Source: Candidatus Hadarchaeum sp. (GTDB lineage Archaea; Hadarchaeota; Hadarchaeia; Hadarchaeales; Hadarchaeaceae). Taken from it: DNA of 64,000 bases. Positions 6,924 to 56,104 of this stretch are shown here, one piece after another; the first letter of the stretch is position 1, and every line of letters begins with the position of its first letter. The stretch is taken from the NCBI RefSeq assembly GCF_049969415.1, contig NZ_JBMFOX010000002.1, forward strand, positions 32,001 to 96,000. Reading direction: 5' to 3'. The notes under the pieces were generated by a model. It saw nothing but the letters and a program-made list of their open reading frames with translations. It was not told where the DNA came from and searched no databases. The position numbers and the translations under genes are program-made.

Positions 6924-7000
6924 TGGCGGGCCCGTCGGGATTTGAACCCGAGTCCTAAGCTCCGCAGGCTCATGTCCTATCCAGGCTAGACTACGGGCCC
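6924..7000 (-). tRNA. tRNA-Arg(GCG), CCA encoded
   Basis: Minus strand reads GGGCCCGTAGTCTAGCCTGGATAGGACATGAGCCTGCGGAGCTTAGGACTCGGGTTCAAATCCCGACGGGCCCGCCA: cloverleaf, anticodon loop CT-GCG-GA, T-loop TTCAAAT. Confidence 0.96.
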
Positions 7001-31805: not shown

Positions 31806-32330
31806 ATGGAAGCCATTGAGGCCATTCGGTTGCGGAGGTCGATCAGGTCGTATGAAAGGAGACCGGTCCCGAGGGATAAAATTGAAAAAATTCTAGAGGC
31901 CGCCCGTTTAGCACCTTCAGCGAAGAATGTTCAGCCTTGGTACTTCGTTGTGGTAACCGATGACGAGAAGAGGGAGAAGATCGCTAAAAGCGGCAGGTTC
32001 GCCGGCTTTATCAAGGAGGCCCCGGTTGTGATTGTGGGCTGCGGTGATACCAAGGCCTCGCCAAAGTGGCACGTGGTCGACGTTTCCATCGCGATGCAGA
32101 ATATGGTCATCGCGGCCACGGCGGAGGGATTAGGGACCTGCTGGGTGGGCAGTTTTGACGAGCTTTTGGTTAAGGATATTTTGAAAATCCCGGAACACTA
32201 CAAGGTGGTTGCCCTTCTGGCGTTGGGTTATCCTCGCAAAAAATTTGACTTGACGGCAAAGCTGCTCCACTTCACCCGCAGAAAGAAGCATTTAGATCAG
32301 ATTGCAGGATTCGAGGAGTTCCAAGGCTGA
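31806..32330 (+). CDS. Nitroreductase-family protein
   Basis: RRSIRSY, APSAKNVQPW, AMQNM.IAA..EGLGTCWVG, LGYP. Confidence 0.92.
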   Translation: MEAIEAIRLRRSIRSYERRPVPRDKIEKILEAARLAPSAKNVQPWYFVVVTDDEKREKIAKSGRFAGFIKEAPVVIVGCGDTKASPKWHVVDVSIAMQNMVIAATAEGLGTCWVGSFDELLVKDILKIPEHYKVVALLALGYPRKKFDLTAKLLHFTRRKKHLDQIAGFEEFQG

Positions 32331-51784: not shown

Positions 51785-53125
51785 ATGAGAAGGGTTGAGA
51801 TATTGACCAAGGACGAGATAATCCAGACGGTGGAAAAGGAAGGCATCAAGTTCATCCAGATGCAGTTCACCGACATTTTGGGCACGGTGAAAAATGTCAC
51901 CATTCCCGCCACCAAGATCGAAAAGGCGTTGGACGAAGGAGTCTTCTTTGATGGTTCTTCTGTTTTAGGCTATGCCACCATCGAGGAATCTGACATGCGC
52001 CTGATGCCGGATCCGGAGACTTTCGTGATCATTCCATGGTTGCAGGACAATCTTAAGACGGCGCGGATGGTCTGCGATGTGTATGACCATGAGGGCAATC
52101 CATTTGAAGGAGATCCGCGGGCGGCATTAAAGCGGCAGCTGGAAAGGGCTAGGAAAAAGGGGTGGATTTTTAACACGGCTCCTGAGTACGAGTTCTTTTT
52201 CTTGATGTTGGATGAACAGGGGCTGCCCACAACCAGACCTTCAGATTCCGGCGGTTACTTTGACCTCATGCGGGACAGGGGAGACCTCATCAGAAAGGAA
52301 ATAGTTAACTACCTTAATCTGATGGGATTCGATGTGGAGGCTTCGCATCATGAGGTTGCCCCCGGACAGCATGAGATAGACCTCATGTACACCGATGCCA
52401 TGACCTCAGCCGATAGGGTGGCCATGATGAAGTACGTCACCAAGAATATTGCCTACCGCCACGGGCTCTACGCCACCTTCATGCCCAAGCCAATTTACGG
52501 CGTCAACGGCTCGGGAATGCACGTTCATCAGTCGCTCATGACGCTTGAAGGGAAAAATGTGTTTTACGATCCTAAGGGTCCGTACAAGCTGAGCAAGTAT
52601 GCGCTTTACTTCATCGGTGGGCTCCTGAAGCACGCCAAGGAAACCTGTGCCATTTTGGCTTCGACGGTTAACTCCTACAAGAGGCTGGTTCCCGGATATG
52701 AGGCCCCAGTTTACATTTCTTGGGCGAACAGAAACAGGAGCGCTTACATTCGCGTTCCGGCGGGCAGGGAATCCCACACCCGCATTGAGTTGCGAAACCC
52801 TGACCCTGCAGGCAACCCCTACCTCCAGTTCACGGTGATGTTAGCCGCCGGGCTAAAGGGGATCGAGGAGAAGATAGAGCCTCCGGAGCCTGTGGAAAAG
52901 GACATCTACCACATGGGCACCGAGGAGCGCGAGGCTTTAGGCATCGAATCGCTTCCGGAGAACTTGGGGCAGGCGCTGGATTATATGCGCCGGAGCCAGC
53001 TGGTAATGGATGCGCTGGGTGAGCATCTGTTCAAGCACTTTATCCATGTCAAGGAGAAGGAGTGGGAGAGCTATCGAGCCCACGTGAGCGATTGGGAACA
53101 CAAATTTTTGTTGCCAGCGCTGTAA
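51785..53125 (+). CDS. glnA: Glutamine synthetase type I
   Basis: FDGSS, HHEVAPGQHE, ATFMPKP, NGSGMHVHQS, NSYKRLVPGYEAP, NRSAYIR, RIELR. Confidence 0.96.
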   Translation: MRRVEILTKDEIIQTVEKEGIKFIQMQFTDILGTVKNVTIPATKIEKALDEGVFFDGSSVLGYATIEESDMRLMPDPETFVIIPWLQDNLKTARMVCDVYDHEGNPFEGDPRAALKRQLERARKKGWIFNTAPEYEFFFLMLDEQGLPTTRPSDSGGYFDLMRDRGDLIRKEIVNYLNLMGFDVEASHHEVAPGQHEIDLMYTDAMTSADRVAMMKYVTKNIAYRHGLYATFMPKPIYGVNGSGMHVHQSLMTLEGKNVFYDPKGPYKLSKYALYFIGGLLKHAKETCAILASTVNSYKRLVPGYEAPVYISWANRNRSAYIRVPAGRESHTRIELRNPDPAGNPYLQFTVMLAAGLKGIEEKIEPPEPVEKDIYHMGTEEREALGIESLPENLGQALDYMRRSQLVMDALGEHLFKHFIHVKEKEWESYRAHVSDWEHKFLLPAL

Positions 53126-53151
53126 TCAAAAAATTTAGTATTTTTGATTTT

Positions 53152-53355
53152 TGGCGCGGGGACGATCGCGAAACTACTCCGCGGCGGCTCGGTTACCCAG
53201 CCGCGCTTTCGTTTCGAGATCTTTATCCGACATCCATGCTTCGGTACACACTGCCGTGACCTTATCCACGGCCTCCCCCAGCTGCGCTGAGTTTTTCCGT
53301 GGATCCCCCGAACCCGTGGGTTCGAGTTCAGCCTGTTCTGTCGGCTTATCCCCGC
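53152..53355 (-). ncRNA. Unidentified 204-nt structured RNA with tRNA-like acceptor stem and encoded GCCA 3' end
   Basis: 5' GCGGGGA pairs with 3' TCCCCGC, followed by GCCA; several internal hairpins whose G-U pairs work only on the minus strand; AT-rich flanks with a TATA box about 25-31 nt upstream. Confidence 0.7.
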
Positions 53356-53379
53356 AATTTCCATTTAACAAATTTTTAA

Positions 53380-53392
53380 TAATAAATTTTTC
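53380..53392 (-). promoter_or_regulatory. BRE/TATA promoter of the 204-nt RNA
   Basis: Minus strand GAAAAATTTATTA, with the TATA element 25-31 nt upstream of G53355. Confidence 0.55.
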
Positions 53393-53455
53393 GATAATGT
53401 TTCAGCGTTTTTTGACGTTGAAAGTCTAGTTTTTGATCAACATTTGTGTTCTAGT

Positions 53456-54718
53456 TTACGGGAAGAGACCCAGTCTTTCTTGGGCGTCTATTACCCTTTT
53501 GACACCGAGGATGTAGGCGCCTGTGGGCAAATCAACTTGGTATTCATTCGCAGTCTTTGAAGCGTCGTGGTAAGCTTTCACCATGTGATTTTCTAGTTTT
53601 TGGTTGACCTCGCTTTCGCTCCAGTGCTCTCGGTGGAGGTTTTGTATCCATTCAAAATAGCTGACGGTAACCCCACCTGCGTTGGCCAGGATATCGGGAA
53701 CGACGAGCACTCCCTGCTCGTGCAATATTTCCCTAGCTTTTGGCGTGCTGGGACCATTCGCGCCCTCAGATATGATTTTTGCCTTGATTTTGCTCGCGTT
53801 CGCCTCGGTTATCACGTTTTCCATCGCCGCCGGTACCAGAATATCGCACTCTAGCTGTAGGAGTTCTTCATTGGTAATCTCCTCTCCGCGGCCGAACCCA
53901 CGCAACTTACCTGTTTTCTCCTTGTGTTTTATCGCGGCTTTGACATCAAATCCCTTCGGATCGTAGATGCCGCAGGTTGAGTCGCTCAAGCCAATTATCT
54001 TACAACCCATCTCTTCGAGGACCGCCGCTGCCCACTGGCCGACGTTGCCAAAGCCCTGAACCACGGCCGTTAGTCCTTTCATTTTCAGCCCCAGTTGTTT
54101 GGCGGCCTCTCTGGCACAGATGGCCGCACCGCGTCCGGTCGCTTGTTTTCTCCCCTCAGAACCGCCGAGTTCAATCGGCTTTCCGGTGACGACTTCAGGT
54201 ACCATATAACCCCTGAGCTGGCTGTAAGTGTCCATTATCCAGGCCATCGTTTGGGCATCGGTGTACATATCCGGAGCCGGCACATCTTTGAAGGGGCCGA
54301 TGTCGTCAAAGATCATGGCAGTATATCTTCTCGTCAATCTTTCAATTTCACCCTTCGACAACTGTTTTGTATCCACAGTTACGCCACCCTTGGCCCCGCC
54401 GTAGGGTATATCAACCACGGCGCATTTCCAAGTCATCCACATCGCCAGTGCCTTGACTTCGTCCATGTCGACTTTCGGATGGTATCTTATGCCTCCCTTG
54501 AAAGGACCTCTAGCGTGGCAATGCTGGACTCGGTAGCCGGTAAAAACCTTTATTTCCCCGTTGTCCATGCGCACGGGAACGGAGACAATAATTGTTCGGC
54601 GTGGGTGTTTTAATCTTATAGTTACACAAGGGTCCAACTTCAATATTTCTTCAATAATTTCCAATTGTTCTACCGCGGCTTTGTATGGGTTTAAATTGCT
54701 TGCCGTAATGTCACCCAA
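53456..54718 (-). CDS. gdhA: Glutamate dehydrogenase
   Basis: RGPFKGGIRYHP, MTWKCA, GGAKGG, DVPAPD, VTGKP, QGFGNVG, EGANGP, NAGGVTVSYFEW. Confidence 0.95.
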   Translation of the reverse strand: MGDITASNLNPYKAAVEQLEIIEEILKLDPCVTIRLKHPRRTIIVSVPVRMDNGEIKVFTGYRVQHCHARGPFKGGIRYHPKVDMDEVKALAMWMTWKCAVVDIPYGGAKGGVTVDTKQLSKGEIERLTRRYTAMIFDDIGPFKDVPAPDMYTDAQTMAWIMDTYSQLRGYMVPEVVTGKPIELGGSEGRKQATGRGAAICAREAAKQLGLKMKGLTAVVQGFGNVGQWAAAVLEEMGCKIIGLSDSTCGIYDPKGFDVKAAIKHKEKTGKLRGFGRGEEITNEELLQLECDILVPAAMENVITEANASKIKAKIISEGANGPSTPKAREILHEQGVLVVPDILANAGGVTVSYFEWIQNLHREHWSESEVNQKLENHMVKAYHDASKTANEYQVDLPTGAYILGVKRVIDAQERLGLFP

Positions 54719-54859: not shown

Positions 54860-56104
54860 GTGAACGATTTCACCCATGTGGTAACGCTGGAATCGGCCAA
54901 GGCAGCGTTGGAAGAAAAATGGCGGCCCAAGCCCCGCGATGTAGTTATTCCGGCCGCTTCCGCAGTTGGTCGGGTTTTGTCAAAGGATATAATTTCCAAA
55001 ATAGACGTTCCTCCGTTTGACCGGGCGACCTATGATGGCTACGCAGTAAAAGCCTCAGATACCTTTGGTGCTACCGAGCGCTCGCCCATTGAACTTAGGC
55101 TGGCGGGAAGGGTTGTGGCGGGAACTTGGCCAAAGATGGTTCTGAGGTCGGGATTCTGTGCTGAGATAACTACGGGGGCACCGCTGCCACGAGGAGCAGA
55201 TGCAGTGGTAATGTCGGAATACGTTGTGCCGGCGGATGGTTCGGTAACTTGCTACCGAGCTGTATCCCCCGGGGAGAACGTTACCAAGAGGGGCTCCGAT
55301 ATCAGAAAAGGACAGCCGGTGCTCAGGAGATTAAAACGGCTTAATTACCTTGATGTTGCTGTTCTTGCGGCGGCGGGGGTTGATAAAGTCATGGTTAGGG
55401 ACAGGCCAAGGGTGGCGATTATCTCTACTGGTTCGGAGCTGGTGGAGCCAGGAGCAAGGCTTAGGCCGGGAAAGATCTACGACGTTAATGCGACATCACT
55501 CTCGGAGTCGGTGAGGGCCTGCGGTGCCGAACCAATTTTTCTTGGCATTGTGCCTGACAGATTTTCGGCCATCAAAGCCGCGGTAAGTAAAGGAATCAAA
55601 GCCACCAACATAGTCCTGATCTCTGGCGGTTCTTCCGTGGGTGTGGGGGACATTACCCCTGGAGCGGTAGCCAGCTTGGGTAAACCGGGCATCATCGTTC
55701 ATGGTATCGCCATGAAACCGGGTAAACCGACTTTCATTGCCGTGGTCAAAAATAAGCCCGTCTTCGGCCTTCCAGGCTACCCCGTTTCTGCTCTCATGGT
55801 ATTTGACCAGCTCGTCGCCGATTACCTGCATGAACTCTCAGGAGTCCCGCGGAGCCCGCGGCGTATTGTCCCGGCAAAGCTCGCGTCCAGGATTCTTTCG
55901 GCTAAGGGCAGGAAGGAACTCGTCCCGGTCAGACTGGTGAAAAAAAACGGCCAGAATTTTGCCGAGCCGGTTCTTAAGGGATCGGGGGCCATCACTTCTC
56001 TCTCAACCGCCGACGGCTACATTGAGGTGCCGCTGGAGCGAGAAATCGTTGACGAGGGCGAGGTTGTTGAGGTGAAGCTTTTTGAAGGGGTCGACCATAC
56101 CTAG
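54860..56104 (+). CDS. moeA: Molybdopterin molybdenum/tungsten transferase MoeA (paralogue 2)
   Basis: PPFDRATYDGYAV, TTGAPLP, STGSEL, SGGSSVG, MKPGKPT, GLPGYP. Confidence 0.92.
   Translation: MNDFTHVVTLESAKAALEEKWRPKPRDVVIPAASAVGRVLSKDIISKIDVPPFDRATYDGYAVKASDTFGATERSPIELRLAGRVVAGTWPKMVLRSGFCAEITTGAPLPRGADAVVMSEYVVPADGSVTCYRAVSPGENVTKRGSDIRKGQPVLRRLKRLNYLDVAVLAAAGVDKVMVRDRPRVAIISTGSELVEPGARLRPGKIYDVNATSLSESVRACGAEPIFLGIVPDRFSAIKAAVSKGIKATNIVLISGGSSVGVGDITPGAVASLGKPGIIVHGIAMKPGKPTFIAVVKNKPVFGLPGYPVSALMVFDQLVADYLHELSGVPRSPRRIVPAKLASRILSAKGRKELVPVRLVKKNGQNFAEPVLKGSGAITSLSTADGYIEVPLEREIVDEGEVVEVKLFEGVDHT

Follow-up and report, generated by a model that had tools for sequence, protein, structure and literature searches.

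The window analysed here comprises 64,000 nt of contig NZ_JBMFOX010000002.1 of Candidatus Hadarchaeum sp. (forward-strand positions 32,001 to 96,000). Our subject is a stretch of 204 nt on its minus strand (53152-53355), which a preliminary description made from the sequence alone had quoted with the correct letters and coordinates and had interpreted as an RNA mimicking tRNA. Very probably, this stretch is the gene of a stand-alone, highly structured non-coding RNA (ncRNA) and the short form (S-type, about 200 nt) of an RNA family of the Hadarchaeota that is absent from Rfam. The family, which is previously undescribed, consists of short and long RNAs of 200-230 nt; of the 66 Hadarchaeota genomes searched, 51 contain it, with five matches at most in any one of them. 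The core of the ncRNA, from the 5' strand to the 3' strand of its terminal helix P1, covers 200 nt (53156-53355, minus strand) and scores 236 bits with R1, a covariance model built from the five closest sequences, the window's own included, with a structure obtained by RNAalifold and checked by hand.

Profile matches bear out the proposed location of the ncRNA between gdhA and glnA. On one side lies glnA (51785-53125, plus strand; TIGR00653, 538 bits), and on the other gdhA (53456-54718, minus strand), which reaches 547 bits with the archaeal GdhA model, below the curated cut-off of 750 for that model; MoeA (54860-56104) is encoded beyond gdhA. The source genome (G000) has 1.47 Mb in 138 contigs and is 95% complete. 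The GC content of the ncRNA is 0.61, so that the term GC-rich island, used earlier for this locus, is apt only with respect to the spacers of about 100 nt beside it (0.28-0.42) and not with respect to the genome as a whole (0.54).

Secondary structure and covariation

The minimum free energy of the ncRNA is -101.1 kcal/mol, as compared to -72.4 +/- 4.4 kcal/mol for 200 dinucleotide shuffles (z -6.51), none of which was as stable. In the proposed fold, for which all coordinates refer to the minus strand, the clamp helix P1 of 7 bp (53349-53355, positions 1-7 of the RNA, paired with 53156-53162, positions 194-200) closes a three-way junction with A-rich joiners that carries a 5' domain and a 3' domain. 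All seven pairs of P1 are formed in 100% of 27 S-type orthologues, and four of them show compensatory changes. The 5' domain is built on a stalk consisting of P2 (53339-53344, positions 12-17, with 53227-53232, positions 124-129; compensatory changes in four of six pairs) and P3 (53330-53332, positions 24-26, with 53238-53240, positions 116-118), two of whose three pairs covary across the family (CG/UA/AU). P3 closes a four-way junction with the hairpins P4 (CTCGAACC/GGTTCGGG; 53307-53326, positions 30-49; five of seven modelled pairs compensatory in the orthologues), P5/P5a (53266-53302, positions 54-90) and P6 (53243-53261, positions 95-113; six of eight pairs compensatory). P5/P5a, for which covariation is seen as well, comprises a 6-bp stem, a conserved purine-rich loop of 5x5 nt (AAAAA/GGAGG), a second 6-bp stem and a loop of 3 nt.

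At the three-way junction, the A-rich joiner J2/7 (53222-53226, positions 130-134) is marked by a GGAaAaAGa block which is nearly invariant in 61 family members. It leads into the 3' domain (53164-53221, positions 135-192), an irregular hairpin of P7, an internal loop, P8 and P9, whose helices are 91-100% paired in the orthologues, with compensatory changes in 10 of 18 pairs. One strand of the internal loop is a family-conserved GAAA (53207-53210, positions 146-149) and the other is GGAGUA (53175-53180, positions 176-181), where a gAGUARY block is nearly invariant in the same 61 members; we take this loop to be a loop-E or sarcin-ricin-like module of the AGUA/GAA kind. P9 is capped by a GUAA tetraloop (53193-53196, positions 160-163), the corresponding loop being GUAA or GAAA in genera g1, g9 and g12 and AUGA, AUAA or ACAA in g8. 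The ncRNA thus displays every trait that defines the family, i.e., the three-way junction, the four-way junction closed by P3, and the AAAAA/GRAGG and GAAA/GAGUA loops.

When the 27 S-type orthologues are aligned to R1, standard pairs occupy 94.8% of the 1641 cells belonging to the 61 proposed pairs, as compared to 37-46% in a control in which the 3' partners were slid by 1-3 columns. Compensatory changes are found in 36 of the 61 pairs, and none of 500 column shuffles attains any of the observed pairing measures; a lack of conservation in relatives, raised earlier as a possible refutation, is therefore not what these orthologues present. For 61 family members (59 distinct), the corresponding values are 92.8% paired cells and compensatory changes in 51 of the 61 pairs. 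The same architecture emerges when RNAalifold is applied to 24 long-form members aligned independently with MAFFT; here, 38 of 61 pairs are compensatory. Several helices of the preliminary description recur with covariation support: its terminal stem is P1 with 7 bp, its CTCGAACC/GGTTCGGG hairpin is P4, its GCGGCT..GTAA..AGCCGC hairpin is P8/P9, and the long-range pairing CCGACA/TGTCGG, listed there as an alternative, is P2. The remaining pairings suggested there (AGCC/GGCT, GCCGTGG/TCACGGC, CGCGGA/TTCGCG and GCTGA/TCAGC) clash with the covarying helices P2, P3, P5, P5a, P6, P7 and P8. These comparisons show that the ncRNA is real, conserved and folded as described.

Promoter, transcript ends and coding potential

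Upstream of P1, a TATA box (tttattat, 53379-53386, minus strand) extends from -31 to -24 relative to the first base of P1 and is preceded by a purine-rich sequence, read from the DNA as resembling a B recognition element (BRE; cgaaaaa, 53387-53393, minus strand, -38 to -32). Both elements had been pointed out before and they are genuine, since a regular expression locates the start of a TATA-like box between -33 and -27 in all but one of the 27 S-type orthologues; a BRE-like element upstream of the TATA box also occurs in those S-type orthologues whose upstream sequence was displayed. Among the long forms, the same kind of search places the start of a TATA-like box at -32 to -30 in 11 of 22 members, and the other 11 carry variant A/T boxes at the same place, as judged by eye from the printed sequences. 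Given the usual archaeal spacing between TATA box and transcription start, the transcript would start close to the first base of P1 and would then require no 5' processing by RNase P. The conserved promoter and the covarying helices together uphold the earlier idea of an independently transcribed, stand-alone structured ncRNA.

A possible archaeal terminator, a run of six T on the RNA strand (minus; 53128-53133), lies 3 nt from the stop codon of glnA. This T-run, noted previously downstream of the ncRNA, is situated 22 nt past the sequence GCCA that follows P1. Runs of at least four T within 15 nt after P1 are found in 21 of 22 long (L-type) paralogues and in 9 of 27 S-type members. In the window, the spacer between the ncRNA and glnA (53128-53152) has about 30 nt, with the T6 run on the RNA strand and two T5 runs on the glnA strand, and the A-runs that come after GCCA correspond to oligo-T tracts on the opposite strand, located directly after the glnA stop codon. 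From this arrangement, the convergent ncRNA and glnA genes seem to share a bidirectional terminator region.

An open reading frame (ORF) of 97 codons (53071-53364, minus strand) overlaps the ncRNA and was considered as a protein gene, but was rejected because it is open in few orthologues and shows no codon periodicity: in 20 of 27 orthologues, none of the three sense frames is free of stop codons, and substitution frequencies at the three codon positions are flat (0.237/0.274/0.246), i.e., devoid of a 3-nt period. By these sequence criteria, the ncRNA is non-coding. With regard to expression, four sequencing runs were examined, from which only the extent of contigs was used and not depth or absence of cover. 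One metatranscriptome contains a single contig of 168 nt on 53156-53321, and a second one, from a different study, a single contig of 178 nt on 53166-53339, both wholly inside the ncRNA, while in a run that is probably of DNA a contig of 756 nt extends into the flank. The two RNA-run contigs differ from the window by 9-12 letters and 1-2 gaps and therefore come from relatives; they hint weakly at a small RNA that is discrete and abundant.

Distribution, paralogues and genomic contexts

Of 41 related genomes searched by BLASTN with the 204 nt, 14 give matches. Apart from G000 itself, which is among the 14, these are 13 of 24 genomes of its own taxonomic family and none of 16 from other families. 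R1 was searched through the order, with strict filters on and only about 38 candidates scored per genome, and matched 46 of 65 genomes, most of them with 2-5 matches. By taxonomic family and without G000, these are 39/45 genomes in f1, 3/3 in f5, 2/6 in f2, 1/9 in f4 and 0/1 in f3; one further genome of the phylum is without an R1 match, which makes 46 of 66. A second model, R2, built from 24 long forms, was applied to the 20 genomes missed by R1 and gained five of them (f2 4/4, f3 1/1, f1 0/6, f4 0/8, f6 0/1).

In addition, an exact scan of a genome collection with a conserved 23-nt motif retrieved 31 stretches, of which 26 bear Hadarchaeota-type titles (Hadarchaeota, Hadesarchaea, Hadarchaeales, Hadarchaeum), three Hodarchaeaceae, one 'uncultured archaeon' and one Myxococcota. 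R1 confirms the ncRNA in 30 of the 31; the Myxococcota stretch is without a match. In that Myxococcota-titled bin, the motif is exact (L054:7472-7494) and no covariance-model match accompanies it, and it is a chance match or a fragment. The three contigs titled 'Candidatus Hodarchaeaceae archaeon' (L048, L063 and L067), an Asgard family name, do carry the ncRNA; two of them coincide with genome G009 by sequence or coordinates and the third with G010 by coordinates. As G009 and G010 are placed in the family of the source genome, the titles probably reflect a labelling conflict between Hod- and Had-. As far as searched, which outside the phylum means one exact 23-nt pattern, the RNA family appears confined to the Hadarchaeota. 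Two patterns scanned against viral contigs gave no match.

G000 itself has three copies, namely the one described here (contig C2:85156-85355) and two long paralogues on minus strands. One (C2:100085-100312; L044:3086-3313) has 228 nt by the limits of R1 and lies about 4.1 kb past the right end of the window, and the other (C13:3690-3913; L045:2991-3214) has 224 nt by the same limits. The two share 81% identity with one another and 61-63% with the ncRNA of the window. Both possess a separate A/T-rich promoter box, and P1 is followed at a distance of 3-5 nt by a run of T5-T6. The long form is probably ancestral because it is the only form outside f1, where matches are 212-230 nt long. Its apical loop contains UGGUCGAG without variation in all 24 aligned members, and in its place S-type members have a short hairpin capped by GUAA or GAAA (AUGA-type in g8). 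On the two strands of G000, 37 sites match the 9-mer UGGUCGAG or its complement; inspected by eye as possible targets, nearly all of them are coding (Val-Val-Glu codons), one is tRNA-like and one lies in an apparent 23S rRNA, and none provides a lead.

A third form of about 194-201 nt occurs in several genomes in tandem with a long form, on the same strand and about 90 nt upstream of it. Such tandem pairs (genome:contig:positions) are G049:C85:7881-8399, G047:C168:6067-6585, G056:C10:295-811, G051:C10:890-1406, G052:C64:45632-46150, G050:C14:13069-13586, G053:C10:21744-22261 and G055:C56:1958-2469. These pairs lie at the locus of a DRG GTPase and a flavin adenine dinucleotide (FAD) oxidoreductase, a form of about 200 nt standing ahead of one of about 229 nt, and this looks like a local duplication that yielded a third class of paralogues. 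An apparent additional class of 185-188 nt was discarded, since in the alignment its members look like long forms which R1 cuts short at the apical hairpin, a hairpin that resembles the 3' junction in sequence.

The genomic neighbours differ between these classes. They were tallied as ORFs of at least 90 aa within 2.5 kb, leaving out those that had more than 60 nt in common with the RNA. For S-type members, a glnA homologue is convergent downstream in 16 of 26 loci (the tally held 17, one being a duplicate record) and is not found within 2.5 kb in the other 10; where glnA is nearby, the gap between both genes ranges from 30 to 1219 nt, G000 being at the lower end with about 30 nt. One class of long forms is flanked on one side by a convergent gene for an FAD-dependent oxidoreductase (17 loci) and on the other by a divergent one for a DRG-type GTPase (14 ORFs at 13 loci); the tandem short form has the same location. 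One DRG-type GTPase homologue (L107; G033:C6:12752-13912) contains an in-frame TGA, for which a sequencing error, a broken gene or recoding are possible. The other long form of G000 adjoins genes for an aminotransferase and a GFO/IDH-type oxidoreductase. No protein gene in the tally is common to all paralogue classes, each of which has its own synteny. The position between two nitrogen-assimilation genes, to which the preliminary description had drawn attention, thus reflects regional synteny only, considering the variable gap and the unrelated contexts of the paralogues, and the evidence does not support a specific connection to nitrogen genes.

Possible functions and relation to known RNAs

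Known families offer no identity for the ncRNA. Rfam 15 (4227 families) was searched at gathering thresholds with the whole window and in E-value mode with 401 nt around the locus. At gathering thresholds, the sole match in the window is tRNA-Arg(GCG) at 6927-7000, in agreement with ARAGORN, and no significant match to a known family, which could have refuted the earlier proposal, exists at the locus. In E-value mode, the best match at the locus is a Brucella sRNA model (19.2 bits, E 0.16; cut-off 115), and all three G000 paralogues give only chance-level matches (E >= 0.085, at most 19.2 bits), none of them to a riboswitch or ribozyme model; among Rfam riboswitches at E <= 10, only SAM-II appears at chance level in the spacer of the locus (16.6 bits, cut-off 44). 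The previous failure to relate the sequence to signal recognition particle (SRP) RNA, RNase P RNA, transfer-messenger RNA (tmRNA) or tRNA is upheld by these searches, and the question whether the genome has a separate RNase P RNA and SRP RNA is answered in the affirmative: an archaeal type A RNase P RNA (RF00373) is encoded at C1:28967-29254 (196 bits), an SRP RNA (RF01857) at C16:17850-18157 (157 bits), and two 5S rRNA genes (RF00001) are present elsewhere (93 and 80 bits). RNase P RNA, SRP RNA and 5S rRNA were therefore rejected as identities, and the ncRNA is none of these and not a tRNA either. A Y RNA of a Ro ribonucleoprotein was rejected as well, as no match to TROVE (PF05731) exists in the 95%-complete genome. 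A full-text literature search found no paper on a structured ncRNA of Hadarchaeota, although supplementary tables of large intergenic screens could list the family. The passages seen of a preprint (10.64898/2026.10.21.760802) do not mention Hadarchaeota.

Our preferred explanation, which we hold tentatively and at somewhat less than even odds, is that the ncRNA serves as scaffold of a ribonucleoprotein acting in trans. The RNA is very probably transcribed from its own BRE and TATA box, starting at the first base of P1 or a few bases from it, and ends shortly after the 3' strand of P1. Unpaired purines, which are densely conserved at junctions and internal loops, may then form a compact tertiary fold, a supposition that draws on the invariance of these purines, the loop-E-like module and the clamp helix, and this fold would be the scaffold. 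Action in trans is suggested by a strong promoter, an immediate terminator and the lack of targets in cis. Paralogues might share a core partner and differ in their peripheral hairpins.

Several points weigh against the account of the ncRNA and its family given so far or limit its basis. The analysis yielded neither a partner protein nor a target. Of the 66 genomes, 15 are without the family, including all seven genomes of genus g15 (65-91% complete) and three of four genomes of genus g10, in the latter even at the DRG loci with filters off; a filter-free search of the DRG locus in five genomes that lack the RNA scored 7.5 bits at best (E 0.21), and no divergent copy was detected. The RNA is therefore not a core housekeeping RNA and is an accessory rather than universal component, dispensable in some lineages. 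Outside the phylum, the family was looked for with the single exact 23-nt pattern scan. The alignments used for counting pairs were fitted to the model structure, so that the counts lean towards it; all genomes are metagenome bins, and their relatedness inflates the shuffle controls. The evidence for expression consists of assembled contigs of relatives (about 93-95% identical), which give no ends, strand or level.

Other explanations account for parts of the same evidence. Dense conserved unpaired purines at multi-helix junctions, combined with a clamp such as P1, a loop-E-like module and a tetraloop, are typical of aptamers and ribozymes, and several copies per genome share one core. The ncRNA might thus be a ligand sensor acting in trans, i.e., a riboswitch-like aptamer without expression platform, or a ribozyme. 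We consider this unlikely, as no gene follows on the same strand, a terminator comes right after P1 in 21 of 22 long forms, no riboswitch or ribozyme of Rfam matches and no gene association suggests a ligand. A riboswitch in cis, including the glutamine (glnA) riboswitch, was rejected on account of the same terminator, the lack of an aptamer match and the orientation of the downstream gene, which is convergent, in line with the earlier remark that no same-strand gene is available for regulation. A bolder idea, which is a long shot, regards the family as a new class of functional RNA in archaea with its own tertiary fold, which would act as a ribozyme in trans or dock to tRNA. In the long forms, UGGU of the UGGUCGAG loop is complementary to the universal tRNA 3' end ACCA, to which T-box antiterminators and the L15 loop of RNase P bind likewise. 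By analogy, long forms might serve to bind or sense the 3' ends of uncharged tRNAs; the S-type, in which the loop is lost, would then be a specialised derivative. We give this conjecture equally little credence.

It is very unlikely that the ncRNA is a cis-antisense or terminator-sharing regulator whose read-through into the convergent glnA lowers glnA expression. The glnA homologue within 2.5 kb downstream of most S-type loci, the gap of only about 30 nt in G000 and the fact that members of genus g1 are without a strong T-run directly after P1 would agree with such a role; however, the gap varies up to 1219 nt, 10 of 26 loci are without nearby glnA, the long-form paralogues share the conserved core yet adjoin unrelated genes, an elaborate covarying fold is unnecessary for antisense action and, as a weak hint, both RNA-run contigs end inside the ncRNA. 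Highly improbable is the tRNA mimicry favoured by the preliminary description, a reading in which the terminal stem and GCCA would constitute an acceptor end that is processed by RNases P and Z and aminoacylated or tagged with CCA. In G000, the 7-bp terminal helix is indeed followed by GCCA (53152-53155, minus strand), the tRNA-Arg of the window ends in GCCA in the same way, as had been stated, CCA is found at or just after the end in 20 of 32 tRNAs predicted by ARAGORN in a crude count, and the 3' junction of long forms, GGGUCGAAAUCCCC, is slightly T-arm-like. The tRNA-Arg(GCG) gene itself (6924-7000, minus strand) has a genomic CCA after the discriminator G. As many tRNA genes of G000 encode CCA, a tRNA-like function would be expected to retain NCCA, but of 27 orthologues just two (G000 and G007) have this sequence directly after P1, and of 22 long forms none; other orthologues continue with ACAAA, ACCUUU, ACUUU, CAUUU and others, and in G000 the A-runs after GCCA complement the oligo-T behind the glnA stop codon. 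GCCA is thus not conserved and probably not a functional tRNA-like end. The proposed D-arm is displaced by the covarying long-range helices P2 and P3, the T-arm-like stretch GGGUCGAAAUCCCC is divided between the covarying helices P7 and P1, and the fold contains no T-arm, which agrees with the earlier observation that a T-psi-C loop is lacking. Within the window, tRNA-Arg is the single call made by ARAGORN, which gives none at the loci of the paralogues and, in intron mode, none at the three loci, and the Rfam tRNA model RF00005 has no match at E <= 10; these are tools to which the preliminary description had itself referred. In addition, the promoter spacing would leave no 5' leader for RNase P. 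Finally, the chance that the ncRNA is a divergent universal RNA (RNase P, SRP or 5S) or a small protein gene is practically negligible. A three-way junction, a terminal helix and a loop-E-like module are reminiscent of 5S rRNA and the 97-codon ORF overlaps the ncRNA, yet all three universal RNAs are present elsewhere in G000 above cut-offs, BLASTN of the three paralogues against its SRP and RNase P RNAs reveals only words of 7-12 nt, and the stop codons and the absence of codon periodicity speak against a protein.

To our knowledge, very few large and intricately folded classes of archaeal ncRNAs exist beyond universal and guide RNAs. The present family combines strong comparative support with the size of a small ribozyme and up to five matches per 1-Mb genome, and belongs to an almost uncultured phylum of the subsurface and hot springs. 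Ornate orphan RNAs of bacteria have repeatedly yielded new biochemistry or ribonucleoprotein machines. The covariance model, secondary structure and promoter provide a defined target for structural work and pull-downs, and an entry in RNA family databases would end the annotation of such loci as empty spacers or spurious ORFs.

The relation of the ncRNA to known systems differs from case to case. With tRNA and tRNA-like structures, such as the tRNA-like domain of tmRNA or the module of bacterial Y RNAs, it shares the 7-bp terminal helix and, in G000 and one relative, GCCA; it differs from them by having neither T-arm nor D-arm nor anticodon arm, by the non-conserved NCCA and by a genome without a Ro/TROVE gene. 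Archaeal RNase P RNA likewise has a P1 clamp, a cruciform-like four-way junction of short hairpins and A-rich joiners, whereas in the ncRNA no P4 pseudoknot is recognised, the model does not match and similarity is limited to a word of at most 10 nt. In 5S rRNA, too, a terminal helix sits on a three-way junction, one arm has a loop-E or bulged-G-like loop and the genes are dispersed copies with their own promoters. The ncRNA is about 80-110 nt longer, has a four-way junction in its 5' arm and is without a match to RF00001; moreover, we take the AGUA-type strand to be on the 3' side of the arm in the ncRNA and on the 5' side in 5S rRNA. By description, the closest kin are the ornate orphan ncRNAs of bacteria, i.e., the raiA motif, OLE, ROOL and GOLLD. 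Differences from these are that the present family is archaeal and does not match their Rfam models, that up to five diverged paralogues occur per genome, some in tandem, and that no association with phages is seen (no match in two scans of viral contigs). In common with them, the ncRNA has its own promoter and terminator, covarying helices arranged at multi-helix junctions, conserved unpaired purines, a length of about 200 nt as in raiA, a patchy and lineage-restricted, non-essential distribution, and neighbours that are uninformative about function.

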